NCBI GenBank assembly: GCA_963977845.1
Contig: CAXBPZ010000001.1
Location: forward strand, 45,028-109,027
Source of the DNA: an uncultured Methylophilaceae bacterium
GTDB taxonomy: Bacteria > Pseudomonadota > Gammaproteobacteria > Burkholderiales > Methylophilaceae
Length of the DNA: 64,000 nucleotides
Reading direction: 5' to 3'
Shown here: positions 1 to 16,126 of the stretch, piece by piece
How the letters are laid out: each line of letters starts with the position of its first letter
Position numbering within the stretch: position 1 is the stretch's first letter
Notes under the pieces: model-generated
What the model was told of the DNA's origin: nothing
The model's database searches: none
What the model saw: the letters and a program-made list of their open reading frames with translations, nothing else
Position numbers and translations under genes: made by a program

Positions 1-511
1 GGCACTCGCACTCTGCGAACCCTTTAATGTTTCCAATAACGCCATTAAAAAAGTCTTAGCCGAATTTGAAGCGCCACCTCATCGTATGGAATATGTAGAT
101 TCATTTTCAGGAATTGATTTTTATAACGATTCAAAGGGAACCAATGTAGGCGCTACAATTGCTGCGATAAAAAGTATGACTAAGCCAATTTTATTGGTCG
201 CAGGCGGGGATGGAAAAAATCAAAATTTTAGCCCTTTAATGCATGTGACTAAAGATAAAATCAAGCATGTAGCCTTGATTGGTGCAGATGCTGAGATTAT
301 GCAAAAAGCTTTTAGTGCTGCCGCTATTCCGAATCATATTGAAAAAAGTCTTGAAGATGCTATACATAAATCTTTTGAGTTAGCAAATAAGGGCGATGTA
401 GTTTTATTATCACCGGCTTGCGCAAGTACTGATATGTTTAAAAATTATGTAGAGCGAGGCAATCTTTTTAAAGCTTGTGTAAAGAAATTAAAAGAAAGTC
501 ATGTTAGATAA
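1..511 (+). CDS. murD: UDP-N-acetylmuramoyl-L-alanine--D-glutamate ligase, 3' part (5'-truncated by window edge)
   Basis: Frame is open from position 2 (ALALCE...FEAPPHRME). MurD motifs NDSKGTN and LLSPACASTDMFKNY..RG; first gene of the dcw run. Confidence 0.95.
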   Translation, partial: ALALCEPFNVSNNAIKKVLAEFEAPPHRMEYVDSFSGIDFYNDSKGTNVGATIAAIKSMTKPILLVAGGDGKNQNFSPLMHVTKDKIKHVALIGADAEIMQKAFSAAAIPNHIEKSLEDAIHKSFELANKGDVVLLSPACASTDMFKNYVERGNLFKACVKKLKESHVR

Positions 512-1655
512 ATTTTCCAATAAATCTCTTATTGACAAGCCCTCATTTGACTACGGTTTATTCTGGGTGTCTATGATATTAATTGGTATAGGGCTTGTGA
601 TGGTTTACTCTTCATCAATAGCTTTGGCTGAGACCGCTAAAAAATTTGGAAATTCTTCTTCATATTTTTTGATTAGACAAACCTTATTTATTTGTATTGG
701 GGCAGCCGCAGGATTTATCACTTTTTTAATTCCTATTCGTTGGTGGCAAAGGGTTTCACCTTATTTATTTTTAGGAGGCTTATTTTTACTTTTGTTAGTT
801 TTGATTCCTGGCATAGGCCATAAAGTCAACGGCAGTCGTCGCTGGCTATCACTCATAGTATTTAATTTACAGCCCTCAGAATTCATGAAGTTATTTGTTG
901 CGATGTATGCATCTGATTATGTACTTAGAAAGTCCAAAGAAATTGGTACTTTTTTAAAGGGATTTTTGCCCATGGCTTCTGCAATTATTTTAGTAGGCCT
1001 TTTGTTAATTAAAGAACCAGATTTCGGAGCGCTTGCTGTTATTTCTGTAATTGCAGCCTTAATTTTAATTTTAGGCGGCATTAATAAAAATATTTTATTT
1101 GGACTTCTTCTAGTATCTCCTGCTGCCATTTGGGCGATTATCCATGCAGCGACTTATCGTACGAGTCGGCTAAGCTTTTTAGATCCTTGGTCAGACTCTC
1201 TAACAAAAAACTATCAATTACAACATTCATTAATGGCTTTTGGTCGGGGGGAAATGTTTGGCGTAGGATTGGGCGGAAGTGTTGAGAAATTACTATACTT
1301 ACCTGAGCCTCACACTGATTTTATTTTGGCAGTATTAGCTGAGGAGCTTGGTTTTGTTGGGGTGCTTATAGTCATTGGCTTATTTTCTTGGCTAGTGATC
1401 CGCGCTTTTGGAATCGCTAAAGAAGCCATTATTAACGAAAATTATTATTCCGCACTTTTATCGCAAGGCATTGGTATTTGGTTTGGGGTTCAAGGCATTA
1501 TGAATATGGGAGTGAATATGGGACTTCTTCCTACCAAAGGTTTAACTCTGCCACTTTTATCATATGGTGGAAGTGGCATATTAGCCAACATGATTGCGCT
1601 TGCCATATTACTCAGAATTGACTGGGAAAATCGAAGAGGCTTAAGAGGAATCTAA
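501..1655 (+). CDS. ftsW: SEDS peptidoglycan polymerase FtsW
   Basis: Multi-TM protein with NGSRRWL, LQPSEFMKL, EPDFG, LPEPHTDFI, GLTLPLLSYGGS; lies between murD and murG. Confidence 0.96.
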   Translation: MLDKFSNKSLIDKPSFDYGLFWVSMILIGIGLVMVYSSSIALAETAKKFGNSSSYFLIRQTLFICIGAAAGFITFLIPIRWWQRVSPYLFLGGLFLLLLVLIPGIGHKVNGSRRWLSLIVFNLQPSEFMKLFVAMYASDYVLRKSKEIGTFLKGFLPMASAIILVGLLLIKEPDFGALAVISVIAALILILGGINKNILFGLLLVSPAAIWAIIHAATYRTSRLSFLDPWSDSLTKNYQLQHSLMAFGRGEMFGVGLGGSVEKLLYLPEPHTDFILAVLAEELGFVGVLIVIGLFSWLVIRAFGIAKEAIINENYYSALLSQGIGIWFGVQGIMNMGVNMGLLPTKGLTLPLLSYGGSGILANMIALAILLRIDWENRRGLRGI

Positions 1656-1659
1656 CTCT

Positions 1660-2733
1660 GTGAATTCGCATAAAAAAATATTAATAATTGCAGGAGGAAC
1701 TGGAGGACACATCTATCCTGGTATTGCAATTGCGGATTATTTAAAAGTTAAAGGCTGGTTGATTACTTGGCTTGGAACTTCCCATGGCATGGAAAATAAG
1801 TTAATCGAAAAAAAACTCTATGAAAAGGCAAATATTGATATTACTGGCATTCGAGGTAAAGGCCTTTTAAGTTGGATAAAACTACCATTTATGCTTTTAA
1901 TGGCATTAATACAATGTGCAAAAGTAATTAAAAAAGAAAAACCAGATATCGTGATTGCTATGGGAGGTTATGTGTCATTTCCCGGTGGACTTATGGCTAG
2001 ACTTATGGGGAAGCCACTTATTGTGCACGAACAAAATTCGATTCCAGGCCTTACTAATAAATTATTAGCAATAGTTGCAACAGAAATATATTCTGCTTTT
2101 CCAATTAAATTATTACGCGTCTCTCAAAAGATTGGTAATCCAGTCAGAGATTCTATTAGGCAAATCAAAACACCAATTCAAAGATTTAAAAATAGAAAAG
2201 GCCCATTGAGATTGCTTGTTGTAGGAGGAAGTTTGGGGGCCAAATTTTTTAACGATACGATTCCTTTAAGTATTAAAAAAATTCATCCTAAAAATAGACC
2301 AACTATTATTCATCAATCAGGTGAAAAACATTTTGAAGAATTAAAAACAAACTATAAGAAATATGGCATTAAGGCGGACTGCAGAGCCTATTTGGATCGA
2401 ATTGAAAAAGTGTACGAATGGGCTGATCTAGTTATCGCTAGAGCTGGGGCTCTTACGATATCAGAGTTTTCTGCTGCAGGAATTGCTAGCATCTTGGTAC
2501 CATTTCCTTTTGCTGTAGATAACCATCAATTTTATAATGCAAAATACTTAAGTGATAAGAAGGCTGCGCGACTTATAATTCAAGAGAACCTTTCACCCAA
2601 ATTATTAAGCCATCTCATAAATAGCATTTCAAGAAATGAATGTTTAAGAATGTCAAAAGCCGCATTAGAAAATAAAACAAAAAAACCTGAAGAGCTTATT
2701 CATCAAGCATGTGAGCGATTAATTAAAAAATGA
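1660..2733 (+). CDS. murG: Undecaprenyl-PP-MurNAc-pentapeptide GlcNAc transferase
   Basis: GGTGGHIYPG, GGYVS, HEQN, GNPVR, GGSLGA, RAGALT motifs. Confidence 0.97.
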   Translation: MNSHKKILIIAGGTGGHIYPGIAIADYLKVKGWLITWLGTSHGMENKLIEKKLYEKANIDITGIRGKGLLSWIKLPFMLLMALIQCAKVIKKEKPDIVIAMGGYVSFPGGLMARLMGKPLIVHEQNSIPGLTNKLLAIVATEIYSAFPIKLLRVSQKIGNPVRDSIRQIKTPIQRFKNRKGPLRLLVVGGSLGAKFFNDTIPLSIKKIHPKNRPTIIHQSGEKHFEELKTNYKKYGIKADCRAYLDRIEKVYEWADLVIARAGALTISEFSAAGIASILVPFPFAVDNHQFYNAKYLSDKKAARLIIQENLSPKLLSHLINSISRNECLRMSKAALENKTKKPEELIHQACERLIKK

Positions 2734-4121
2734 AACACAATATCAATCGAATTCACTTTATAGGTATTGGCGGCTCAGGTATGAGTGGTATTGCTGAGGT
2801 GATGCATAATTTAGGCTATTTTGTTTCTGGTTCCGATATTCAGGATTCGCCAGTCACAGCAAGATTAAAAGATCTTGGCCTTAAGATCTTTATTAATCAT
2901 GCCGCAGATAATATTAAAGATGTTGATGTCATTGTTATTTCTTCTGCAATCGATAAAGACAACCCGGAATTAATAGCCGCTATAAAAAATAAAATCCCTA
3001 TTATGCCAAGAGCAGAAATGCTCTCAGAATTGATGCGCTTTAAAAAAGGCATTGCTGTAGCCGGAACCCATGGCAAAACTACAACAACGAGTTTAATAGC
3101 TTCTATCTTGGCAGAGGCCTCAATGGATCCAACTTATGTGATCGGCGGAAGACTCTCTTCTTTGAATGCAAATGCCAAGTTAGGTAATGGAGAATATATA
3201 GTCGTTGAAGCAGATGAGTCCGATGCATCATTCTTACATTTAACCCCAGTCTATTCTATTGTGACAAACATTGATCAAGATCATATGGAAACATATGACA
3301 ATGATTTTGATAAACTTAAAAAAACATATATCGAATTTATTCATCGACTACCTTTTTATGGTGTTGTAATTGTGTGTATTGACGATCCCGTTATTAAATC
3401 AATTCTTCCAGAAATTTCTAGACCCATCATTACTTATGGATTATCAAATGATGCAGATGTTCATGCAGAAGAGATTCAGGCAGACGCAGGTAAAATGCAT
3501 TTTAAAGTGACCATTAAACATTCAGACGTTATTAAAACATCAATCACTTTGAATCTGCCTGGAAAGCATTATGTGAGAAATGCATTAGCAGCAATCGCTT
3601 TAGCTGATGAGCTTGAGATACCTATTTCTAAAACGATAGATGCTTTAAAACATTTTAAAGGTGTGGGTCGAAGATTCGAAACTTATAAAGATTTAATGTT
3701 TAATAAAAAATCTTTTACTCTGGTAGATGATTACGGACATCATCCTGTCGAAATAGAAGCTGTTCTTGATGCAGCGCGTGATGCTTATCCTAATAAATCG
3801 ATCTATCTTGTTTTTCAGCCTCATCGTTATTCTAGAACAAGAGATTGTTTCGAAGAATTTGTAAGAGTATTACAAAAAGCAGATAAAGTACTTCTTACCG
3901 ATATTTATTCAGCTGGTGAAAAAGCAATTCCAGGAGTAAGTTCTAAAGCAATAATGGACAGCATGAATAAAATCTCTAATAAGGTTTCTTTCGAAAAAGA
4001 CTATACAAGATTAGCTCGAATAGCACTTCAAGATATTGATCAAGATTCGATCTTAATAGTTATGGGTGCAGGTTCAGTAGGAAAAGTAACGAAGGATATA
4101 TTTAATATTTTAAACGCATGA
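2730..4121 (+). CDS. murC: UDP-N-acetylmuramate--L-alanine ligase
   Basis: GIGGSGMSG, GTHGKTTTT, EADESD, DDYGHHP, FQPHRYSR motifs. Confidence 0.97.
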   Translation: MKHNINRIHFIGIGGSGMSGIAEVMHNLGYFVSGSDIQDSPVTARLKDLGLKIFINHAADNIKDVDVIVISSAIDKDNPELIAAIKNKIPIMPRAEMLSELMRFKKGIAVAGTHGKTTTTSLIASILAEASMDPTYVIGGRLSSLNANAKLGNGEYIVVEADESDASFLHLTPVYSIVTNIDQDHMETYDNDFDKLKKTYIEFIHRLPFYGVVIVCIDDPVIKSILPEISRPIITYGLSNDADVHAEEIQADAGKMHFKVTIKHSDVIKTSITLNLPGKHYVRNALAAIALADELEIPISKTIDALKHFKGVGRRFETYKDLMFNKKSFTLVDDYGHHPVEIEAVLDAARDAYPNKSIYLVFQPHRYSRTRDCFEEFVRVLQKADKVLLTDIYSAGEKAIPGVSSKAIMDSMNKISNKVSFEKDYTRLARIALQDIDQDSILIVMGAGSVGKVTKDIFNILNA

Positions 4122-4996
4122 GAAATGTATTGATTTTAAAGAATGAATCATTGAATAAATATAATAGTTGGCGCGTTGGTGGCAGTGCTGATACTTTATT
4201 CACACCTAAAAATTTAGAAGATTTAAAAAATTTTTTGAAACAAGAAAAATATTTAAAGCCTCTTACTTTTATTGGATTGGGATCAAATATTTTGGTAAGA
4301 GATGGTGGAATTCGAGGAACAGTTATTGTTATGCATGCTGCTCTTAATGAAATCCAACTAAGTGATGATGGGGTATATGCTGAAGCAGGCAACACATGTG
4401 CAAAAATTGCGAAAACTTTAGCGAAAGAGCATTATGTCGGCGCAGAGTTTTTTGCTGGTATTCCAGGCACAATTGGAGGAGCGCTTGCCATGAATGCAGG
4501 ATGCTATGGCTCTGAAACATGGAATTATGTAGCCCGAGTGAATATGATCGATCAAGCGGGCAATTTAATCACAAGATCAAAAAGTGAATTTTTGATTTCC
4601 TATCGAGAGGTAGTTAAGCCCAAAATAAATGAGTGGTTTGTAGGCGCTTGGTTTAATTTTAAAAAAGATTTGGCAGCTGATCCAGAGAGCAAGATTAAGG
4701 AATATCTTAATCATAGAAAAAATACACAACCTCTTAATTGGCCCACTGCAGGTTCAACTTTTAGAAACCCCAAAGATACTTTTGCAGCAAAACTCATAGA
4801 GGAGTGTGGATTAAAAGGTTTTAGGGTGGGTAATGCAGAAGTATCTGATAAGCACGCAAATTTTATTATCAATTTGGGTGAAGCATCTGCAAAAGACATT
4901 GAAGATATTATTGAACATATAGAGGCTGAGGTATTTAAAAGAAAAGGTATTAAGCTTGAAAGGGAAGTCAAAATTTTAGGAGACTTTCTAAATTGA
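4118..4996 (+). CDS. murB: UDP-N-acetylenolpyruvoylglucosamine reductase
   Basis: GLGSNILVRDGG, GIPGTIGGALAMNAG, AGSTFRNP, VSDKHANF motifs. Confidence 0.96.
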   Translation: MRNVLILKNESLNKYNSWRVGGSADTLFTPKNLEDLKNFLKQEKYLKPLTFIGLGSNILVRDGGIRGTVIVMHAALNEIQLSDDGVYAEAGNTCAKIAKTLAKEHYVGAEFFAGIPGTIGGALAMNAGCYGSETWNYVARVNMIDQAGNLITRSKSEFLISYREVVKPKINEWFVGAWFNFKKDLAADPESKIKEYLNHRKNTQPLNWPTAGSTFRNPKDTFAAKLIEECGLKGFRVGNAEVSDKHANFIINLGEASAKDIEDIIEHIEAEVFKRKGIKLEREVKILGDFLN

Positions 4997-5901
4997 CTAA
5001 TAGCTTCGGAAAAGTGGCAGTGTTAATGGGGGGGGACTCCAATGAAAGAGCTGTTTCACTCTTAAGTGGTGATGCTGTAGTTCATGCTTTGAAACGCTTA
5101 GGAATTCAGGCAGAGGCTTTTGACCCCTCTGAAAGAGATATTGAGGAAATTAAAAACTATAGCAGAGTCTTTATAGCTCTCCACGGACGGGGCGGTGAAG
5201 ATGGTTCAATACAAGCTTTTCTAAAATCGAAAAAAGTTGCGTATACAGGGAGTGACGCTCTAAGTTCATCGATTGGTATGGACAAACTCAAGACAAAATT
5301 ATTATGGCGGTCACTTAATATTTCAACCCCAGATTTTTTACAAGTTACTGAGAAAACCTCCTATGTAGATATTGTCAATTCAATTGGCTCACCTTTTTTT
5401 ATAAAACCAGCTAATGAGGGTTCAAGTATTGGAATTGATAAGATCAAAAACGAACAACAATATAAAGATGTTTTTTTAAAGACATCAAAAATTGATTCAA
5501 ATGTAATTGTTGAAAAATTTGTTGATGGCGATGAATACACAGTGGCCATTGTTAATGATAAAACACTTCCAGTAATTAAAATTAAACCTAGCAACGAGTT
5601 TTATGATTATGAAGCTAAATACATAAAGGATGATACGCAATATATTTGTCCTTCAGGAATAGAAAAAGATAAAGAAGTATTAATAGCGCAAGAGGCATTG
5701 GAGGCTTTCCGAGTGCTTGGCTGTTCTAGTTGGGGTCGCGTAGATTTTATGATCAATCAACAAGGCCAACATTATTTTATTGAAGTAAATACTTCACCCG
5801 GCATGACAAGTCATAGCTTGGTTCCTATGGCCGCTAAAGAGATTGGTATTAATTTTGATCAATTAGTTTTAGAGATATTAAAAACTGCAGATGTTAAATA
5901 A
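4993..5901 (+). CDS. ddl: D-alanine--D-alanine ligase
   Basis: GGDSNERAVSL, LHGRGGEDG, KPANEGSSIG, YDYEAKY, EVNTSPGMT motifs; TTG start. Confidence 0.96.
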   Translation: MTNSFGKVAVLMGGDSNERAVSLLSGDAVVHALKRLGIQAEAFDPSERDIEEIKNYSRVFIALHGRGGEDGSIQAFLKSKKVAYTGSDALSSSIGMDKLKTKLLWRSLNISTPDFLQVTEKTSYVDIVNSIGSPFFIKPANEGSSIGIDKIKNEQQYKDVFLKTSKIDSNVIVEKFVDGDEYTVAIVNDKTLPVIKIKPSNEFYDYEAKYIKDDTQYICPSGIEKDKEVLIAQEALEAFRVLGCSSWGRVDFMINQQGQHYFIEVNTSPGMTSHSLVPMAAKEIGINFDQLVLEILKTADVK

Positions 5902-6625
5902 CTATTTAAAAATTTATTGGCTAGGCAATTTAGTTCTATTACTAAATATTATTTTAATTCTCTTTTTATTAAGCTATCGATTTATGCATTTCGCAAAATT
6001 TCCCATTAGAGAAATTAAAGTGATAGGACAGTATCAACATCTTGATGAAGATCAAGTTAGTATGATTTCTGATCGATTTGTAAAGGGCAATTTTTTTTCT
6101 TTAGATTTATATAGCACTAAGGAAGCGTTTACTAAATTACCTTGGATTAGAAATGTAAGTTTAAGAAGAGTCTGGCCAGACCGATTGGAAGTTTTTGTTG
6201 AGGAACATCAAGCTATAGGAAGGTGGGGTGCGATTGCTTTAGTGAATGAAAATGGTGAAATTTTTCATGGAGCTTCAGACGAAGATTTGCCACTTTTTTT
6301 TGGTCCGGAAGGAACGGAAAGCTATATAGCATTGGAGTACAAAAAAATGCAAAGTATTTTAGATAAAAAACAATTAAAAATTGCGCAAGTTTCCTTGTCT
6401 TCTAGGTACACTTGGGACATTAGAACAACTAATAATATGAAAATCATTTTAAGTAAAGATAACATCGAAGAGAATCTCAATCGCTTTATGTCTCAGTATG
6501 ACAATATTTTAGCCTCAGTTAAAAGAATTGGTTCGGCTGACTTAAGATATCCCAACGGTTTTGCTATTAAAAAATCTACGGAACCCATTCAAAAAATAGA
6601 TAGTGGTGAGAGGCCACTTATATGA
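5891..6625 (+). CDS. ftsQ: Cell division protein FtsQ
   Basis: N-terminal TM, POTRA region (LPWIRNVSLRRVWPDRL), C-terminal DLRYPNGFA; lies between ddl and ftsA. Confidence 0.92.
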   Translation: MLNNYLKIYWLGNLVLLLNIILILFLLSYRFMHFAKFPIREIKVIGQYQHLDEDQVSMISDRFVKGNFFSLDLYSTKEAFTKLPWIRNVSLRRVWPDRLEVFVEEHQAIGRWGAIALVNENGEIFHGASDEDLPLFFGPEGTESYIALEYKKMQSILDKKQLKIAQVSLSSRYTWDIRTTNNMKIILSKDNIEENLNRFMSQYDNILASVKRIGSADLRYPNGFAIKKSTEPIQKIDSGERPLI

Positions 6626-7860
6626 TTAAACAAAAAGAAGAAAAAAATCTCATTGTTGGTCTGGATATTGGAACATCTAAGATTGTAGCTATTGTGGCCG
6701 AGTTACAACCTGATGGATTATTGAATGTCATTGGACTAGGACAGCATAGTTCGAAGGGATTAAAAAAAGGTGTTGTCATCAACATTGATTCTACTGTGGA
6801 GGCCATTCAAAGAGCCATTGAAGAAGCGGAGCTCATGGCAAATTGTAAAATCACAGATGTGTATACAGGGATTGCTGGCAGTCATATTAAAAGCATCAAT
6901 TCACATGGCATGGTGAAAATTAAAGATACCGAAGTTTCACAATTGGATGTGGATAAAGTAATTGAGACTGCTTGTGCAATAACACTCCCTAATGACCAAC
7001 AAGTCCTTCATATATTAACTCAAGAATATGTGATTGATGGTCAGGAAGATGTAAGACAGCCACTTGGTATGAGTGGTATGAAATTAGAAGTGAAAGTTCA
7101 TATTGTGACAGGAGCGATTGCGGCCGCCCAAAATATTGTGAAATGTATTAAGCGTTGTGGTCTTGAAGTATCCGAATTAGTTTTACAACCTTTAGCATCA
7201 AGTATGGCAGTTCTTACAGACGATGAAAAAGAATTGGGAGTATGTTTGGTAGATATTGGTGGTGGTACAACTGATATTGCAGTATTAAGGCATGGATCCA
7301 TTAGACATACGGCAGTAATTCCGATTGCTGGTGATCAAATTAACAATGATATTGCAGTAGCATTTAGAACACCATTGCCATCAGCTGAAGAGATAAAAAT
7401 TAAACATGGCTACGCCGCAAGAAGTTTAGCTTCAGCCTCAGAACAAATTGAAATTCCTGTGGTAGATGGAAAAGAGTCTAAAACGATCTCAACACTCTCC
7501 TTAGCTGAAGTCATTGAAGCTCGATTAGTAGAGCTTTATGAGCTTGTTGCAAGTGAGTTGAAACGAAGCGGCATGGAAGATATGATAGCTTCTGGCATTG
7601 TGATTACAGGTGGTTCATCTTTAATGAAAGGTATGGTTAATCTCGGGGAGAGTGTATTCAGAATGCCGGTTAGAGTCGGCACACCAAGAAATGTTGGTGG
7701 CTTGTCTGAAGTTGTTGATAATCCGAGATATTCGACAGGTATTGGGTTGTTGCTTATGGGAAAAGGGCAGTTAGAAAAAGAGATGATGAATCAAATTGAT
7801 GGTAATTCAATAAATCAAATTTTCATGAGAATGAAAAATTGGTTTCAAGGTAACTTTTAA
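6622..7860 (+). CDS. ftsA: Cell division protein FtsA
   Basis: GLDIGTSK, DIGGGTTD, VITGGSS motifs. Confidence 0.97.
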   Translation: MIKQKEEKNLIVGLDIGTSKIVAIVAELQPDGLLNVIGLGQHSSKGLKKGVVINIDSTVEAIQRAIEEAELMANCKITDVYTGIAGSHIKSINSHGMVKIKDTEVSQLDVDKVIETACAITLPNDQQVLHILTQEYVIDGQEDVRQPLGMSGMKLEVKVHIVTGAIAAAQNIVKCIKRCGLEVSELVLQPLASSMAVLTDDEKELGVCLVDIGGGTTDIAVLRHGSIRHTAVIPIAGDQINNDIAVAFRTPLPSAEEIKIKHGYAARSLASASEQIEIPVVDGKESKTISTLSLAEVIEARLVELYELVASELKRSGMEDMIASGIVITGGSSLMKGMVNLGESVFRMPVRVGTPRNVGGLSEVVDNPRYSTGIGLLLMGKGQLEKEMMNQIDGNSINQIFMRMKNWFQGNF

Positions 7861-7875
7861 TTCTTGGAGATAGAT

Positions 7876-9027
7876 ATGTTTGAAGTTGTTGATAGCAAAT
7901 CACAAAATGCCATCATAAAAGTCATAGGTGTAGGTGGCTGTGGTGGGAATGCTATTGATCATATGATCGATAAGAATTTAATGGGCGTTGAATTCATCTG
8001 TGCTAATACCGATATGCAGGCTTTGAAAAAAAGTCGCGCAAGTCATATCTTGCAAATTGGACAAGCAATGACAAAAGGGCTAGGTGCTGGAGCTAAACCC
8101 GAAATTGGAAAACAAGCAGCTATAGATGATAAAGAAAAAATTATTAGTGCCATTCAAGGTGCTGATATGTTATTCATAACTGCAGGGATGGGTGGCGGAA
8201 CAGGTACAGGTGCTGCACCCGTTATTGCTCAAATTGCGAAAGAATTAGGTATTTTAACGATTGCAGTTGTCACAAAACCTTTTTTATTTGAAGGTAAAAG
8301 AACAGCAATAGCTGCAGATGGTATTGATGAATTAGTTCAGCATGTAGATTCTTTAATTGTCATTCCAAATGAAAAATTAATGGAAGTATTGGGCGAACAT
8401 ATTCCGTTTTTAGAGGCCTTTAACGCAGCCAATGATGTATTACATAATGCCGTATCAGGTATTTCAGAAATTATTAATAGCCCAGGATTAGTTAACGTCG
8501 ACTTTGCTGATGTGAAGACGGTAATGGGTGAAATGGGTATGGCTATGATTGGTTCTGGCGTCGCTCAAGGTGAGCATCGCGCATATAAAGCATCCCAAGC
8601 TGCGGTAGCAAGCCCACTTTTAGAGGATGTAAATTTAGTAAATGCGCGCGGTGTATTAGTAAACATTTCTGCAAGCAGTAAATTTACGCTGAAGGAATAT
8701 CATGAGGTTATGGAGACAATTAAACAGTTTGCAGCAATTGATGCTACTGTAATTGTTGGTAACGTGATTGATGAAGCTATGGGAGATTCTATTCGAGTCA
8801 CTGTAGTAGCAACAGGGCTAGCTCAAAATATAAAGCAGAGAATGCCTCGTATCGAGCCTAAGCCAATTACGCAAAATAGAATATCTGTGACAGAAGATGA
8901 GTCTATGAACGATGATGAGCTTAATGTGTTTAGTTCAAATGAGAATAGAGCTCAGGTTGAAATTATGAAAATGTCTGGTATGGAAGAATATGATATACCT
9001 GCCTTTTTAAGAAAAAAAGGCGAATAA
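7876..9027 (+). CDS. ftsZ: Cell division protein FtsZ (ATG 7876 preferred over the ORF-track TTG 7864)
   Basis: GGGTGTG tubulin signature and C-terminal DIPAFLRK; GGAG RBS at 7866-7869 precedes ATG 7876. Confidence 0.97.
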   Translation: MFEVVDSKSQNAIIKVIGVGGCGGNAIDHMIDKNLMGVEFICANTDMQALKKSRASHILQIGQAMTKGLGAGAKPEIGKQAAIDDKEKIISAIQGADMLFITAGMGGGTGTGAAPVIAQIAKELGILTIAVVTKPFLFEGKRTAIAADGIDELVQHVDSLIVIPNEKLMEVLGEHIPFLEAFNAANDVLHNAVSGISEIINSPGLVNVDFADVKTVMGEMGMAMIGSGVAQGEHRAYKASQAAVASPLLEDVNLVNARGVLVNISASSKFTLKEYHEVMETIKQFAAIDATVIVGNVIDEAMGDSIRVTVVATGLAQNIKQRMPRIEPKPITQNRISVTEDESMNDDELNVFSSNENRAQVEIMKMSGMEEYDIPAFLRKKGE

Positions 9028-9033
9028 GAATTA

Positions 9034-9987
9034 ATGATTAAACAGAGAACTATTCAAAAATCTGTCCAGACTTCCGGAGTGGGTCTTCATAATGGTGAAA
9101 AAGTAATAATGACCCTCAAGCCTGCTGAAGTTGATCAGGGTATTATTTTTCGTAGAATTGATCAAAAGAAAAATCATGAGGTGAGAGTAAGTCCTGAAGC
9201 GGTGAAGGATACGAAGATGTGTTCAGCTATTGGGCAAGATACATCGCGAGTAGCAACAGTTGAGCATTTAATGTCGGCATTATCTGCTGCTGGTATTGAT
9301 AATATTGTGATCGAATTAAATGGCTCCGAAGTTCCAATTATGGATGGGAGTTCAATTCCTTTTATTTATCTACTTCAAACTGCAAAAATTAAAGAGCAAG
9401 ATGCTCCCAAAAAATTTTTAATAATTAATGATGTGATAGAAGTTAAAGATAAGGATAAATGGGCAAGATTCGAACCCTATGAAGGATTTAAAGTTGACTT
9501 TACGATAGACTTCCCTCATCCAGTATTTAATGAGTCAACCAATAAAGTTGCTTTAGATTTTTATGATGAATCCTATGTAACCGAAATCAGTCGAGCACGA
9601 ACGTTTGGATTTATGCAAGAAGTTGAATATTTAAGAGCGAATGGATTGGCTAGAGGTGGATCGCTTGATAATGCGATTGTTTTAGATGAGTATAAAATTA
9701 TTAACTCAGATGGACTTCGCTACAACGATGAATTTGTGCGACATAAAATACTCGACGCTGTTGGCGATCTTTATATGTTAGGTTATTCAATCATAGGCAT
9801 TTTTAAAGCATATAAATCAGGCCATGAGTTAAATAATAAATTATTACTTGCATTATTATCAAATAAAAAAAGCTGGAGTCTAACGACTTTAGATAGCAAA
9901 GATCCTAAGACTTCAAATTTGGCATCACGCTATATAAATTCTAAGAGCGAAATTTTAAATCAAGCAATAGCGGGAGTTTACCAATGA
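9034..9987 (+). CDS. lpxC: UDP-3-O-acyl-GlcNAc deacetylase
   Basis: TVEHLMSAL and HKILDAVGDL zinc motifs, KSGHELN. Confidence 0.97.
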   Translation: MIKQRTIQKSVQTSGVGLHNGEKVIMTLKPAEVDQGIIFRRIDQKKNHEVRVSPEAVKDTKMCSAIGQDTSRVATVEHLMSALSAAGIDNIVIELNGSEVPIMDGSSIPFIYLLQTAKIKEQDAPKKFLIINDVIEVKDKDKWARFEPYEGFKVDFTIDFPHPVFNESTNKVALDFYDESYVTEISRARTFGFMQEVEYLRANGLARGGSLDNAIVLDEYKIINSDGLRYNDEFVRHKILDAVGDLYMLGYSIIGIFKAYKSGHELNNKLLLALLSNKKSWSLTTLDSKDPKTSNLASRYINSKSEILNQAIAGVYQ

Positions 9988-10145
9988 ATATTTTAAGATT
10001 TTGTATCTTTTTATTGCTCGCAATATTAGTAGCTTTAACTTTTTTATATTTGAATACAAAGAATAAGAAATATATAAAGTATTTAAAGCTTACAACTAAC
10101 ATCACATTAATTTTGATTCTTATATTTATAATAAGAATGCTTTGA
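9984..10145 (+). CDS. Small two-TM membrane protein, 53 aa (not in ORF track)
   Basis: Hand-translated MNILRFCIFLLLAILVALTFLYLNTKNKKYIKYLKLTTNITLILILIFIIRML. ATGA overlap with the lpxC stop; fills the lpxC-10153 gap almost exactly. Confidence 0.7.
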   Translation: MNILRFCIFLLLAILVALTFLYLNTKNKKYIKYLKLTTNITLILILIFIIRML

Positions 10146-10152
10146 GATCATC

Positions 10153-11103
10153 GTGTTGCAATCAAAAAGAACAATTGCAATTTTTGGCGCTTCTGGCTTT
10201 TTAGGCTCTAGTATTGTTTTAGCCCTTAATCAATCTAATTACCGCCTTAAATTATTTTCACGAAACAAAGAAAAAATTAAATTTTGGACAGTGAATCCAA
10301 ATATCCAAATATTTAACTTAAACCTTGATGATCTCACGCAAATAAAAAAAGATTTAAAAAATACAGATGCTGTTATTAACCTTTTAGGGATTCTTCATCA
10401 GTCAAAAAAAGATTCTTTTGATAAGATTCATCATCTTTGGCCAAGTTACTTAGCTAAAATTCTTAAAGACATGGGGATTAAAAGGCTTATACATATTAGC
10501 GCCTTGGGCGCAGGTGCTAAAACATCTAGTTTATATCTCAGATCAAAGGCTCTTGGTGAGACAGCATTACTTAAACAAAAAGATTTAAATTTAACTGTAT
10601 TAAAACCCTCTATTATTTTTGGACCAAAAGATAGTTTTATAAATATGTTTAGGATGCTTGTGAAGTGGCTTCCTATCATTGTTCTAATATCCCCTCAATC
10701 CAAATTTCAACCGATTTATATTGAAGATGTTTCAAAAATGATTATTAAATGTCTTTGGGATAAAAAAACTTATGGGAAAGTTTACGAACTAGGTGGTCCG
10801 CAAGTTTATTCGCTTAAAGAAATTATTAGATTAATTATTAAGTCGGAAAAAATACAACGATTCATTATTCCACTTAATAAACCTCTTTCATTTATGTTTG
10901 CATTTAGTATGGAAATGTTGCCAATAAAAATACTGACTCGAGATAACTGGAGATCAATGCAAACTGATAATATTGTAAGTCCTCAGTATAAAGCCCCTTA
11001 TCAATACTCTCTTCAGCGATTAGAGCGTTATCTAGAAAATAAAAAAAGTAGAGCACCAATGCGGGCTAAATATAATTTTTACAGAAGTAAATCTGGCCGA
11101 TAA
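10153..11103 (+). CDS. Complex I NDUFA9-family atypical SDR (NAD-dependent epimerase family)
   Basis: GASGFLG Rossmann motif, HISALGA, YLRSKALGE, LKPSIIFG, FQPIYIEDV. Confidence 0.85.
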   Translation: MLQSKRTIAIFGASGFLGSSIVLALNQSNYRLKLFSRNKEKIKFWTVNPNIQIFNLNLDDLTQIKKDLKNTDAVINLLGILHQSKKDSFDKIHHLWPSYLAKILKDMGIKRLIHISALGAGAKTSSLYLRSKALGETALLKQKDLNLTVLKPSIIFGPKDSFINMFRMLVKWLPIIVLISPQSKFQPIYIEDVSKMIIKCLWDKKTYGKVYELGGPQVYSLKEIIRLIIKSEKIQRFIIPLNKPLSFMFAFSMEMLPIKILTRDNWRSMQTDNIVSPQYKAPYQYSLQRLERYLENKKSRAPMRAKYNFYRSKSGR

Positions 11104-12228
11104 ATGAAAATATACCTTGTAGGTGGTGCTGTGCGGGACCAGATCATGGGCTTATCAGTTAAAGATAAAGACTATGTGGTTGTAGGATCCACTTTTAAAG
11201 AAATGGTCAAATTAGGTTATAAGCCTATAGGTAAAGATTTTCCAGTTTTTTTACACCCCAAAACACATAATGAATACGCGCTAGCAAGAACAGAACGCAA
11301 AGTTTCGAGAGGATATAAAGGGTTTAGAATCTACGCTTCAAAAGAAGTAACTTTAGAGGAAGATCTTAAGCGTAGGGATCTCACAATTAATGCTATTGCA
11401 AAGGATGCAAGAGGTCAGTTTATTGATCCCTTTCATGGTATTAAGGATATAAAAAATAAAGTTTTACGTCATGTGAGTTCTGCTTTTGTGGAAGACCCTA
11501 TTCGTGTATTGCGTATAGCTCGATTTTCTGCCCGATTTCATCAGTTTAAAATACACCCCAAAACAGAATCGATTCTCAAGCAGATTGTAAGAAATAAAGA
11601 AATAGAAGCTGTGGCATCAGAGAGAATTTGGCACGAATTATTCGTTGGTTTTTCTGAAAAAAAATCATATCTAATGATTGAAGTTCTTCATAAATGTGGG
11701 GCGCTTAAATTATTACTTCCGGAAATGAATTATATAAAGCACAAACATTCTATAAAAAAGAGTTTTGAATATGCACTCAAATCAAAATATTCCCCTGAAA
11801 TTAAAGCAGCTTTATTCTTTATGTATCTCTACCCTTTAAGACTTAATGGTAGCCTTGAGGAAGAAATTTATACAAGACTATCTGTACCGAATGCAGTAAA
11901 AAAATTAACTCAAAAGACAATTTCAAATTTATCGGATTTAAAAGAATTTAAGAAACTTAAATCTCGCCAAATTTTAGATTTGATTTACAAAATGGATTTA
12001 TTTAGAAATCCAGATACTTTTTCAGATATGATGAAAATCTTTGAGGCTTTTATTAGCAGCCAGCCAGCCCAATTAAAAACAGCCCAAACAACTCTGAAAT
12101 CCTTAAAGAAGTATCTAAAACATCTTAATAAATTAAATCTTGCTTTAATTAGTCAGAATAAGCATGGTTTAGATATTAAAGATGCGATTTATGAGGCACG
12201 CTTGGAAGTATTAAAAAAACTTATCTAG
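11104..12228 (+). CDS. cca: CCA-adding tRNA nucleotidyltransferase, short form
   Basis: VGGAVRD, DKDYVV, EYALARTERK, EEDLKRRDLTINA, EDPIRVLR. No HD motif seen. Confidence 0.92.
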   Translation: MKIYLVGGAVRDQIMGLSVKDKDYVVVGSTFKEMVKLGYKPIGKDFPVFLHPKTHNEYALARTERKVSRGYKGFRIYASKEVTLEEDLKRRDLTINAIAKDARGQFIDPFHGIKDIKNKVLRHVSSAFVEDPIRVLRIARFSARFHQFKIHPKTESILKQIVRNKEIEAVASERIWHELFVGFSEKKSYLMIEVLHKCGALKLLLPEMNYIKHKHSIKKSFEYALKSKYSPEIKAALFFMYLYPLRLNGSLEEEIYTRLSVPNAVKKLTQKTISNLSDLKEFKKLKSRQILDLIYKMDLFRNPDTFSDMMKIFEAFISSQPAQLKTAQTTLKSLKKYLKHLNKLNLALISQNKHGLDIKDAIYEARLEVLKKLI

Positions 12229-12233
12229 CAGCT

Positions 12234-12851
12234 CTATCTCAACTGAGTAATTTTTGTAATGCGCTTGCCTACAAAAATTGTTTTTTTATTTTGCTTGGAT
12301 ACTAGAATTGTTTTCATACCAATTTTGTAAGCAGTTTTTAAATTAGCAAGATCATCTTCCACCATGACACATTGATGTGCTTTTTTCCCAAGTCGCCTTA
12401 AGATTTTCATGAATGCAAAGATTGATGGCTTAGGATTATATCGAGTTGACTCTATACTATAGACTGCAGAAAAATATTTTTGAATATTGAGTGATTTAAT
12501 AATTGCAATTGCATAGTGAAGCGGGGCATTTGTAAAAATAATTTTTTGCCCTTTAATTTTTTTTAAAGTATTTTTCAGGCTATGGGATTGTTTTACAAAT
12601 TTTGATAGCTCTTCTGCATCGTGTGTGTTAAGTAAAAATTCTTTTGGGTCAACACGGTGATTTTCCATCAAACCTTTTAAAGTTGCGCCATAAACTTTCC
12701 AATATTGATCGCGAAGTTCATGCGCATCTTGATGGCTAATTTTAAGTTTCTGCTCGACATAGGCAGTCATCGATTGATTAATACATGGAAAAATTTTTGA
12801 GCTTGCGTCGTGAAGTGTATCGTCTAAATCAAAAATCCAAATTTTAGACAA
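12234..12851 (-). CDS. HAD-family pyrimidine 5'-nucleotidase
   Basis: FDLDDTL HAD motif I, FTNAP, PKPS, MVEDDLANL; abuts argB. Confidence 0.85.
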   Translation of the reverse strand: MSKIWIFDLDDTLHDASSKIFPCINQSMTAYVEQKLKISHQDAHELRDQYWKVYGATLKGLMENHRVDPKEFLLNTHDAEELSKFVKQSHSLKNTLKKIKGQKIIFTNAPLHYAIAIIKSLNIQKYFSAVYSIESTRYNPKPSIFAFMKILRRLGKKAHQCVMVEDDLANLKTAYKIGMKTILVSKQNKKTIFVGKRITKITQLR

Positions 12852-13754
<903 letters not shown>

Positions 13755-13762
13755 TTAAGATT

Positions 13763-15316
13763 TTAAAGCTTTTTAATAAAAAATTTTGAATTTCTTTCTG
13801 GTAGGTAAGACTCTAATCTTTTTTTAGGAAGTTTTTGAATACTTTCTTCCTTAAAACCTTTTTCGATAAACCAGTGTTCAGTTCTTGTTGTAAGCGCAAA
13901 TAAATATTTATAACTTTTCTCTCGGGCCATTTCTTCACAATAGCTATAAAGTTTTGAACCAAACCCTTTTGATTGGTAGTTTTTGTTAATTGCGAAGCAT
14001 GCAAATTCAACATGATCGTTATATGGGTATAAAGCAGCACAACCGATAATTTTTTTGTCATGTTCAATGACAAAAAAATTCTCAATATCATGATCAATTC
14101 GCTCTTTACCTCTTTTAATGAGATAACCCCCTGCCTCTAATGGATTGATGAGTTTGTGAATACCTTTAACATCATTATGATTCGCCTGTCTAATTGTATC
14201 GAGAGCTTTTTCTGTAATTACAGTACCAACACCTTCATCTGTAAATAACTCCTGAAGAATAGCACCATCTATATGCCGATTAATTAAATGAATTTTATGA
14301 ATACCTGCTTCGGAAGCTTTGATAGCAATTTCCAGAAGATCGAGTTCGTTCGAATTAATGTTGATAAGATCATTTTTTTTTGGATTATTTTTTGCGATAC
14401 TTTTATAGAGGTTGACAGCTTTTTCTAAAGTCATTTCGTGAAGTAACTCATTTCTTAAATTAAAAATACCATCAGAATCTATAAGAAGAATCAGTTTATC
14501 TGCTTCAAGTGCGATTGATGTTTTGAGTGCAACATCTTCCATTGTGAGATTAAACACCTCCCCTGTCGGTGAATATCCAATAGGAGATATGACAACTAAT
14601 TCTTTGTTATCTAATTTTTTCTTAATCGCGGCACTATCAATTTTTCTTACTTCACCGGTATGTTGCATGTCAACGCCATCGATGACACCCAAAGGTTTCG
14701 CCGTAATAAAGTTTCCGCTAGAAACTTTAATGTCGCTTCCTGCCATCGGTGAGTTTAAAAGACTTGAAGAAAGTGTGGATTCAATATTAATTTTAATGAG
14801 ACCATTGGCTTCTTTAACAGCCTCCATGGCCAAATCATCAGTCACACGAACGTTTTGCACAAGCTGGGTTGAGATTTTTTTTTCTTTAAGTTTTTGATCG
14901 ATTTGAGGTCTCGCGCCATGGACAAGCACAATTTTGACGTTTAAACAGGTTAATAAATTGATGTCGTGAGAGAGTGCGGTAAATTGATCTTCATCGAGAA
15001 GCTCCCCTCCAAAAGCAATGACAAATGTTTTATTGCTAAATGTGTTGATATAGGGGGCTGCTAACCTAAACCATTTTGCAAATGTTTGGCTATCTAATTT
15101 TTGAATGGGGTTAGGGGAAGTCTTATTTTGAAAAAGACTAGATGGGGTGCAATTAAGCACTTCACATATTTTGAGTAATTGTGCTTCACTGACGTTCTGG
15201 GCACCTCTTTCTATTCTAGAGAGATTGCCAGGATCGCTTGCAATTTTTTCTGCTAATACTTGAAGGGTGAGCCCTAAAGACTTCCTTCTTTTTCTGATTG
15301 ATTCGCCAAGTGACAT
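13763..15316 (-). CDS. argA: XRE-family HTH fused to amino-acid N-acetyltransferase (N-acetylglutamate synthase)
   Basis: aa 1-62 are an HTH_3-like domain (IRKRRKSLGLTLQVLAEKI...NLSRIERG). From about aa 79 it is ArgA: FRLAAPYI, AAK domain, ELFTDEGVGT, GNAT with QSKGFG, LTTRTEHWF, RNSK. Confidence 0.93.
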   Translation of the reverse strand: MSLGESIRKRRKSLGLTLQVLAEKIASDPGNLSRIERGAQNVSEAQLLKICEVLNCTPSSLFQNKTSPNPIQKLDSQTFAKWFRLAAPYINTFSNKTFVIAFGGELLDEDQFTALSHDINLLTCLNVKIVLVHGARPQIDQKLKEKKISTQLVQNVRVTDDLAMEAVKEANGLIKINIESTLSSSLLNSPMAGSDIKVSSGNFITAKPLGVIDGVDMQHTGEVRKIDSAAIKKKLDNKELVVISPIGYSPTGEVFNLTMEDVALKTSIALEADKLILLIDSDGIFNLRNELLHEMTLEKAVNLYKSIAKNNPKKNDLININSNELDLLEIAIKASEAGIHKIHLINRHIDGAILQELFTDEGVGTVITEKALDTIRQANHNDVKGIHKLINPLEAGGYLIKRGKERIDHDIENFFVIEHDKKIIGCAALYPYNDHVEFACFAINKNYQSKGFGSKLYSYCEEMAREKSYKYLFALTTRTEHWFIEKGFKEESIQKLPKKRLESYLPERNSKFFIKKL

Positions 15317-15333
15317 AAGGTAATAATTTGCTT

Positions 15334-15358
15334 AAAATACATATTTTACATGTATTTT
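15334..15358. promoter_or_regulatory. Perfect inverted repeat AAAATACAT-N7-ATGTATTTT, candidate operator upstream of HTH-argA
   Basis: 9-bp arms at 15334-15342 and 15350-15358, 17 bp from the argA start. The spacer reads GTAAAAT on the minus strand and contains a TAAAAT -10-like hexamer. Confidence 0.5.
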
Positions 15359-15385
15359 TTACATTAATACTATAATTTTTGCGTT

Positions 15386-16126
15386 TTATGCAAAATCACC
15401 CCATAAATTTTGCAAAATAGACAGAGCTACAATAGGTGCTGTTTCCGTTCTTAATATTCTTTGGCCAAAATTGATTGGGATAAAAGCATGATTTATAGCT
15501 AGGGCCATTTCTTTTTCTGAAAAGCCGCCTTCAGGCCCCACCAGAAATACAATCGAATTAGATAGCTTATCTAAGTGGTTTATATTTTGTGCCTTAGATG
15601 GCGTGAGAATTAATTTTAAGTTATCTGTTTTAAGGTTTTCTTCGCTTAACCATTGGTTGAAATGAATGGGACTTAAGATGACTGGAATAGTGGCTCGCCC
15701 AGTTTGTTCACAAGCAGATATTGCAATAGTTTTCCAATGTTCCAGTTTTTTATCTGCTCTTTCCCGATCTAATTTAATGATAGATCTTTCCGTCAATAGG
15801 GGTTGGACAGTATGAACGCCAAGTTCAACAGCTTTTTGAATAATCCAATCCATTTTGTCCCCTGCTGCAAGACTTTGAGCTAATGTAATCTTTAAAAGGG
15901 ATTCGTGATTGACTTCATATTGATTGATAATTTCAACGAATGTTTTATGCTTCGATACTTCTGTCACTTGTGCGACATAATCAAAACCATCTCCATTAAA
16001 AAGAGCAAATTGATCGCCCACTTTTAATCTTAAAACTTTTGTGGCGTGAATATGAGTTTGTGCACCTAGCTCAACAACTTGTTTGAGCTCTAGGTTTTCA
16101 GGGTGGTAAAATCGATTTTCTTCCAT
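15386..16126 (-). CDS. rsmE: 16S rRNA m3U1498 methyltransferase
   Basis: HATKVLRL, IIQKAVELGV, EQTGR, VGPEGGFS, GQRILRTETA motifs. Confidence 0.95.
   Translation of the reverse strand: MEENRFYHPENLELKQVVELGAQTHIHATKVLRLKVGDQFALFNGDGFDYVAQVTEVSKHKTFVEIINQYEVNHESLLKITLAQSLAAGDKMDWIIQKAVELGVHTVQPLLTERSIIKLDRERADKKLEHWKTIAISACEQTGRATIPVILSPIHFNQWLSEENLKTDNLKLILTPSKAQNINHLDKLSNSIVFLVGPEGGFSEKEMALAINHAFIPINFGQRILRTETAPIVALSILQNLWGDFA

Follow-up and report, generated by a model that had tools for sequence, protein, structure and literature searches.

To our knowledge, few DNA-binding enzymes are known as transcription regulators, and none of four such proteins, BirA, NadR, PutA and archaeal RbkR, catalyzes the committed step, subject to feedback inhibition, of an amino-acid biosynthesis. 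Their DNA-binding parts differ in kind: that of NadR is similar to the XRE helix-turn-helix (HTH), those of BirA and RbkR are winged HTHs, and that of PutA is a ribbon-helix-helix. In N-acetylglutamate synthase (NAGS, the product of argA) and the arginine-sensitive N-acetylglutamate kinases, both of which form hexamers, adjacent dimers interlock through their N-terminal helices beside the arginine site. A 2017 paper lists BirA, NadR and PutA as DNA-binding trigger enzymes and adds RbkR (PMC5397151). For the arginine repressor ArgR, a survey of 196 genomes reports absence outside the Gammaproteobacteria; the Methylophilaceae are not named there (PMC5343134). Here we describe a gene from an uncultured Methylophilaceae bacterium in which an XRE HTH is fused to ArgA. 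The gene lies in a 64,000-nucleotide stretch of contig CAXBPZ010000001.1, the whole of which we call the window. We propose, at slightly better than even probability, that the fusion is a bifunctional trigger enzyme: a classical NAGS whose XRE HTH represses its own operon, with arginine as a possible modulator.

The fusion gene occupies positions 13763..15316 of the minus strand; it begins with ATG and encodes 517 amino acids (aa) and a stop. The list of open reading frames (ORFs), the Pfam and NCBIfam matches and the full-length orthologues in other Methylophilaceae agree on this structure, so that the description given in an initial annotation, a single 517-aa ORF made up of an XRE HTH, a short linker and a full-length ArgA, stands. 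Likewise, all the motifs quoted there (IRKRRKSLG, DPGNLSRIERG, AAPYI, QELFTDEGVGT and YQSKGFG) are found in the ORF. The XRE/Cro-C1 HTH (aa 1-62; 15131..15316, minus strand) is matched by the Pfam family HTH_3 over aa 7-59 (E 1.2e-10; 41.7 bits, cut-off 23), with a predicted recognition helix at aa 29-36 (PGNLSRIE). An AlphaFold2 monomer model places five helices in this domain, at residues 3-13, 18-24, 29-36, 44-53 and 58-62, with a predicted local distance difference test score (pLDDT) of 80-89. By comparison with the Protein Data Bank (PDB), its closest solved relatives are ClgR, P22 C2, SinR and 434 Cro. With XRE repressors of this kind (P22 C2, 434 Cro/cI, SinR, ClgR) the fusion shares the predicted five-helix fold and the presence of palindromes over its own promoter; in contrast to them, its oligomerization would come from a 440-aa enzyme and not from a small C-terminal domain.

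Alignment, a table of linker lengths, pLDDT and a check for start codons delimit a linker of 16 aa (aa 63-78; 15083..15130, minus strand). It is followed by the N-terminal helix and amino-acid-kinase-fold domain of ArgA (aa 79-370; 14207..15082, minus strand), defined by an AA_kinase match (aa 96-346, E 3.7e-28) and by alignment to PDB 2r8v, and then by the GNAT acetyltransferase domain (aa 371-517; 13766..14206, minus strand), with its YQSKGFG acetyl-CoA motif, matches to Acetyltransf_1 (aa 397-478, E 1.4e-13) and Acetyltransf_7, and similarity to PDB 3e0k and 2r8v. The NCBIfam equivalog for amino-acid N-acetyltransferase, NF003641, matches from aa 74 to aa 517 (581 bits, cut-off 344); TIGR01890 scores 499 bits (cut-off 203). 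The nearest solved structure of the enzyme part, Neisseria gonorrhoeae NAGS (2r8v), aligns with aa 77-517 and leaves the first 76 residues unmatched. The kinase-fold domain carries the arginine-site signature, namely Y89 in AAPYI together with QELFTDEGVGT; P88, Y89 and I90, as well as E356, L357, F358, T359, G362, G364 and T365, are invariant in a 27-sequence alignment. The fusion therefore resembles classical NAGS (N. gonorrhoeae 2r8v/3d2p, E. coli ArgA) in its kinase fold and C-terminal GNAT domain, its PYI tyrosine and its ELFTxxGxGT motif, and differs in the additional 62-aa XRE HTH and linker, the known enzymes beginning at the equivalent of aa 74-77. As the initial annotation had it, the enzyme appears to be an intact classical ArgA and, by its signature, to be inhibitable by arginine. 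No Pfam or NCBIfam match to Arg_repressor (ArgR) domains was found in the protein; judged by its domain matches, it is a member of the classical NAGS and XRE HTH families and not of the ArgR family.

We found in-frame ATG, GTG or TTG codons at aa 1, at aa 53 (a GTG within the HTH) and next at aa 130. The lack of a start codon that the initial annotation had remarked on for the linker thus extends over aa 54-129, and a separate ArgA cannot be initiated.

To find relatives of the whole protein, we searched a collection of 5.8 billion proteins. The best 120 matches are all full-length fusions of the same architecture, with about 55% identity outside the immediate clade; those that bear names are assigned to Methylotenera, Methylophilaceae, Novimethylophilus, Methylobacillus and Ca. 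Methylopumilus. When 185,579 species genomes were scanned with the HTH alone, 327 carried a fusion-type HTH, a set whose taxonomy rests on the genomes inspected, every one of them Methylophilaceae, as are all of the best 80 of the 327. The nearest matches in that scan, at 95-97% identity, are Ca. Methylopumilus of the freshwater LD28 lineage, to which the window is accordingly assigned. In the best 80 loci, the orthologous ORF has 514-553 aa and is full length wherever the contig permits. With aa 1-130 as query, a collection of 1.84 billion representative proteins yielded only a handful of fusion clusters, the divergent ones being marine OM43 (KB13, MBRS-H7 and LSUCC strains) and a Tara clade; the nearest ArgA clusters without an HTH measure 441-470 aa. 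As to the taxonomic range that the initial annotation had asked about, these searches find the fusion throughout the Methylophilaceae: it is a family-wide trait, from OM43 and LD28 through Methylobacillus, Methylovorus and Methylophilus. The same annotation had placed the fusion in the context of a streamlined genome; this link fails, because the fusion is common to large and small genomes, including those of the last three genera.

An artefact of annotation or assembly, by which a separate XRE regulator and argA had been wrongly joined, could draw on one public OM43 record of 447 aa without the HTH and on an apparent frame break in one related locus (L036). The data refute this explanation, and we give it practically no chance. 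The frame is unbroken from HTH to ArgA in about 90 independent genomes and metagenome-assembled genomes (MAGs), and the identical protein is recorded on 101 contigs. Moreover, lake metatranscriptome contigs covering 14892-15514, 14907-15700 and 14876-15282 cross the HTH, the linker and the kinase domain without a frameshift; these contigs show no transcription start. The apparent frameshift in L036 was rejected as a masked run of 31 N. A stop or frameshift between HTH and ArgA, which the initial annotation had named as refuting the fusion, was thus found neither in relatives nor in RNA-derived contigs. As for the short record, within an OM43 cluster (that of P0238) the entries from Methylophilales MBRS-H7, MBRSG12 and MBRSF5 give a 447-aa hypothetical protein that starts past the HTH, and the others give 500 aa; the 447-aa annotation probably results from a miscalled start codon, which masks the fusion.

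The HTH is under purifying selection. Across 27 diverse sequences (about 55% identity), residues I7, R8, R11, K12, T17, L18, Q19, L21, G30, N31, L32, S33, R34, E36 and R37 are invariant; the recognition helix is invariant, and the linker is freely variable, both in sequence and in length. For 12 Methylopumilus orthologues, the ratio of nonsynonymous to synonymous substitution rates (dN/dS) is lowest in the kinase-fold domain (0.018) and rises through the GNAT domain (0.033) and the HTH (0.073) to the linker (0.138). An HTH free of purifying selection, which the initial annotation had named as refuting its reading, is thus not what is observed; the low values of both enzyme domains lend indirect support to catalytic activity. 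As in trigger enzymes, an enzyme and a DNA-binding domain are joined in one polypeptide, and both are under selection. With NadR, BirA, PutA and RbkR the fusion has in common an N-terminal DNA-binding domain on a working enzyme and predicted operators at genes of the same pathway. It is unlike them in being the first, allosterically controlled step of arginine synthesis and in having its own promoter as the sole predicted target seen.

We aligned the DNA upstream of the fusion gene over 80 loci and found, in all clades, a conserved palindrome, wwtwTGCrTwwwAyGCAwaww, with the 13-bp core TGCrTwwwAyGCA. A promoter usually has two copies and sometimes three. The centres are 29-32 bp apart in 27 pairs and 50-51 bp apart in 11 pairs, the latter being the window's clade; these distances are whole helical turns, and the sites would therefore lie on one face of the DNA. 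In 54 of the 71 loci with a sigma-70-like promoter, a site falls on the -35 hexamer of the best match or immediately follows its -10 hexamer, and the -35 hexamer is often TTGCAT or TTGCAA, itself a half-site. By analogy, such placement over the -35 and start-site regions is the classical arrangement of an autorepressor.

In the window, the two best matches to a position weight matrix (PWM) trained without the window's own clade are the two sites before the fusion gene, and the PWM scan found no further strong site in the 64 kb. The first operator candidate, O1 (TTTTGCATAAAACGCAAAA; 15376..15396, core 15380-15392, no strand assigned here or for the other sites), is the top PWM match of the window: it scores 24.7 bits, or 24.1 bits with the leave-clade-out PWM, and the maximum over 100 shuffles was 20.4. 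It contains the inverted repeat TTTTGC-N7-GCAAAA, overlaps a TTGCAT -35-like hexamer as well as the stop codon of rsmE, and is kept at -76 in the closest loci (L001-L012). The second candidate, O2 (TGTATTTTAAGCA; 15325..15345, core 15329-15341), is the second-best match; its centre is 51 bp from that of O1, and it is placed 13-25 nt ahead of the ATG, immediately following a TAAAAT -10-like hexamer. O2 is kept at -25 in the clade and reaches 21-22 bits in L008 and L010. A possible third site of the TGT/ACA type, TGTAAAAAATACA (15351..15363), for which the evidence is weak, starts 29 bp downstream of the O1 start and is present at -47 in L001, L005 and L006. A perfect 9-nt inverted repeat, AAAATACAT-N7-ATGTATTTT (15334-15358), encloses the TAAAAT hexamer, includes part of the weak third site and is kept only in the closest relatives. 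We rejected this repeat as an operator: orthologous promoters conserve TGC-N7-GCA, and the repeat appears to be the junction of two weaker TGT/ACA-type half-sites.

Several clades carry variants of this arrangement. In loci L040, L054, L056, L059, L063, L074 and L068, a palindrome of 20-25 bits (for example AATTTGCGAATTACGCAAATT) lies within the gene, in linker-coding DNA at about +196 to +253, where it encodes ..A[D/N]YA..; it is weaker in L018, L057 and L078, and in L062 and L072 it is altered symmetrically to TGTGGATTACACA. This intragenic palindrome may serve as a looping operator or be left over from an ancestral regulator-argA intergenic region. No in-frame start codon follows it, and an internal ArgA-only isoform was rejected because such a codon is missing both in the window and in the clades with the intragenic site. 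In marine clades (L126-L139), the proximal operator overlaps the fusion ATG (..TTGTATTTTATGCAAAA..). The L129 clade has TTTATC-N7-GATAAA as its distal palindrome in place of TTTTGC-N7-GCAAAA, and its HTH has SS for GN at residues 30-31.

The motif is specific to the fusion promoter. Of the 110 PWM matches of at least 15 bits in 1.26 Mb of Methylophilaceae DNA, 95 fall within 200 nt upstream of a fusion ATG. An unbiased scan for pairs of sites 15-20 bp apart (double sites), run over the 185,579 genomes, gave 36 places; nine are in Methylophilaceae, all nine at the rsmE-fusion junction, and the remainder are mostly hairpins of other phyla that resemble repetitive extragenic palindromic (REP) elements. 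Hairpin repeats with TGCGTAATACGCA-like palindromic arms and GC-rich spacers (TGCGTAATACGCACCCTAC...GGTGCGTAATACGCA) were seen in L084, L089, L105 and L107 (gammaproteobacterial MAG Ww183), L094 (Methyloprofundus) and L097; the TGCGTAATACGCA-like hairpins occur several per genome, look REP-type and appear unrelated to argA. A scan of all genomes with the single-site consensus TTTGCGTWWWACGCAAA returned at least 120 stretches, was swamped by chance matches, included no Methylophilaceae among the matches listed and is uninformative about a regulon.

Is the fused HTH the protein that binds these palindromes? The arguments that it does are indirect but convergent. The palindromes stand essentially only at the gene's own promoter, and the closest solved relatives of the HTH are repressors that bind operators as dimers. 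Grouped by HTH residue 40, clades with Q40 have 186 TGC-type and 68 TGT-type half-sites, and clades with L or I at this position have 9 and 63, respectively. The L/I40 group consists of two separate clades, OM43 and one that is Methylotenera-like, which use TGT-N7-ACA half-sites. We did not uphold residue 40 as a specificity determinant, since a marine clade with L40 (P0128) has mixed sites. The search by DNA pattern alone also led to a prophage-like immunity region in an Alphaproteobacteria MAG (BC1.221; L102:811-1533) that encodes a 215-aa CI-like repressor. The HTH of this repressor (TLQQVA...QMSRIERG) is 36% identical to that of the fusion, and it adjoins a double TGC-N7-GCA operator and two small HTH genes. 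This similarity points to a possible origin of the ArgA HTH in a phage-type repressor of the same operator class.

From these observations, we infer the following mechanism. The ArgA oligomer, which homology with N. gonorrhoeae NAGS suggests to be a hexamer, would pair up the HTH domains: with each HTH joined to the interlocking N-terminal helix, two-fold-related pairs would be expected, three per ring, an arrangement that would suit two or three phased palindromes. Each pair would bind one palindrome with the 13-bp core in the gene's own promoter, and binding over the -35 and start-site regions would repress argA and, in the window's genome, also the cotranscribed argB and a HAD-family gene. 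The most plausible modulator of this repression is arginine, whose binding site would lie beside the N-terminal helix of the kinase-fold domain.

Several observations weigh against this proposal. The AlphaFold2 monomer has low confidence in the enzyme part (mean pLDDT 66). O2 scores only 14.5 bits (14.4 with the leave-clade-out PWM), within the range of shuffled maxima, and a consensus promoter scan of the window found no convincing minus-strand promoter. Across the family, 11 of 78 loci lack a PWM match of at least 9 bits, though they have TGT-N7-ACA variants. The prediction of co-variation made in advance was half met, with the third L40 clade, marine P0128, having mixed or TGC-type sites, and another transcription factor could bind the palindromes. 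Finally, the linker is long, variable and predicted to be disordered in most clades (in the window, aa 63-93 have pLDDT <50), which argues against the arginine site and the HTH being tightly coupled. Linker length ranges from about 5 aa in OM43 to about 50 aa elsewhere. In the OM43 clade (L117-L125), the linker is nearly gone (..SIDNLVGQSSVDFISAFRSAAPYI..), the recognition helix reads GNLSKIEQGK, and both operators are TGT-N7-ACA, 42 bp apart; this nearly linker-free form makes coupling possible.

How the linker is read bears directly on whether arginine acts on transcription at all. The HTH might keep NAGS low and steady as an autorepressor that needs no ligand, with arginine acting on catalysis alone. 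The operator evidence is identical for this explanation and for the trigger enzyme, negative autoregulation is the commonest behavior of XRE repressors, and the disordered, poorly conserved linker of 5 to 50 aa makes allosteric transmission doubtful. We nevertheless consider it rather unlikely: the OM43 HTH is almost directly joined to the N-terminal helix, which is part of the arginine site in homologues, and BirA, NadR, PutA and RbkR are all ligand-modulated (PMC5397151). A different objection is that the palindromes serve another factor, or are promoter or terminator-insulator elements of the rsmE end, and that the HTH is vestigial or has a role other than DNA binding, such as protein contacts. 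The overlap of O1 with the rsmE stop codon and the imperfect co-variation of HTH and operator would fit this view. It appears very unlikely to us given an HTH dN/dS of 0.07 and a recognition helix invariant throughout the family, a motif found essentially only before the gene that encodes the fused HTH, a related CI-like HTH that accompanies the same operator type, and a palindrome geometry that fits dimeric XRE binding.

The reach of the regulation was a further question. The initial annotation had suggested that the fusion acts as the transcription regulator of the pathway in place of ArgR; it would then sense arginine and repress many arginine genes, as ArgR does in Gammaproteobacteria. The arginine-site signature is kept in the enzyme, the fusion gene and argB probably share a transcript in the window's genome, and, with ArgR reported absent outside the Gammaproteobacteria (PMC5343134), the role is vacant; by the same token, there is perhaps nothing to replace. 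Against such a regulon, no site lies upstream of argB (best match 3.2 bits) in any of the 17 loci that have more than 400 nt between argB and the fusion gene, no strong site other than those before the fusion gene occurs in the 64-kb window, and all nine Methylophilaceae double sites are at the fusion promoter. No arg gene besides argB was found in the window, and a motif search found none in about 90 related loci; the regulon evidence covers argB only, and argC, D, F, G, H, J and carAB lie outside the DNA examined. We therefore regard a pathway-wide role as unlikely: the sequence evidence supports autoregulation of argA and its cotranscribed genes.

Returning to the trigger enzyme, the ring geometry allows a bolder version, in which ArgA would be a convergent, ArgR-like arginine sensor: a hexamer whose three HTH pairs clamp two to three phased operators, with the intragenic operator about 250 bp downstream forming loops in some clades, arginine setting the strength of repression and further arginine genes under control. 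The likeness to ArgR/AhrC is one of functional analogy only and consists of an arginine-binding hexamer, presumed for HTH-ArgA, and of multiple phased palindromes before arginine genes. Unlike ArgR/AhrC, the fusion lacks Arg_repressor domains; its operator is TGC-N7-GCA with an odd 13-bp core, as opposed to the 18-bp ARG box TGAAT-N4-ATTCA, and no fusion regulon was detected beyond its own operon. This version seems improbable to us.

The fusion gene is followed, 26 nt downstream, by argB (acetylglutamate kinase; 12852..13736, minus strand; TIGR00761, 254.9 bits), whose stop codon is abutted by a HAD-family hydrolase gene (12234..12851, minus strand; HAD_2, E 7e-20). Upstream lies rsmE (16S rRNA methyltransferase; 15386..16126, minus strand; Methyltrans_RNA, E 6.5e-55), with its last codons inside O1. 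In many lineages, argB is 16-100 nt behind the fusion gene, and the order fusion-argB-HAD and the synteny with rsmE are conserved. A metatranscriptome contig (X4 record 25; 13000-14102) runs from the end of argA into argB. Probably, argB is cotranscribed with the fusion gene, and the HAD gene is the last of an argA-argB-HAD operon. The ArgB of the window has an N-terminal extension with a PYI tyrosine (EALPYIKKF) and a C-terminal motif typical of hexameric, arginine-inhibited acetylglutamate kinases; judged by their signatures, the first two enzymes of the pathway both look arginine-sensitive. Variable neighbors of the fusion gene in related loci include Hsp20, formate-tetrahydrofolate ligase, SlmA, catalase, MntH and HslU. 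The flanks of the window (1-12228 and 16170-64000; translations read by eye) contain the dcw cluster (murD to ftsZ, lpxC), cca, tkt-gap-pgk, H+-pyrophosphatase, secA, the rnf/rsx cluster, dapA, leuA, ffh, lysC, alaS and recX-recA, a housekeeping context with a GC content of 36%.

The HTH-ArgA architecture appears to be undescribed. The initial annotation knew of no functional description, and our literature searches for an HTH-NAGS fusion likewise found none; public records name the protein simply amino-acid N-acetyltransferase, and some genome records trim the HTH or label the protein hypothetical. Some Methylophilaceae rank among the most abundant methylotrophs of fresh (LD28) and coastal (OM43) waters. 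The operator candidates are defined to the base, cultured and tractable relatives share the gene, and natural variants of the linker (5 to 50 aa) and of the half-sites offer comparisons. If true, our proposal would open a first way into the regulation of arginine synthesis for a betaproteobacterial family, from whose class ArgR is reported missing. If HTH-ArgA binds its operators, then allosteric and transcriptional control of the entry into arginine synthesis would be combined in one protein.

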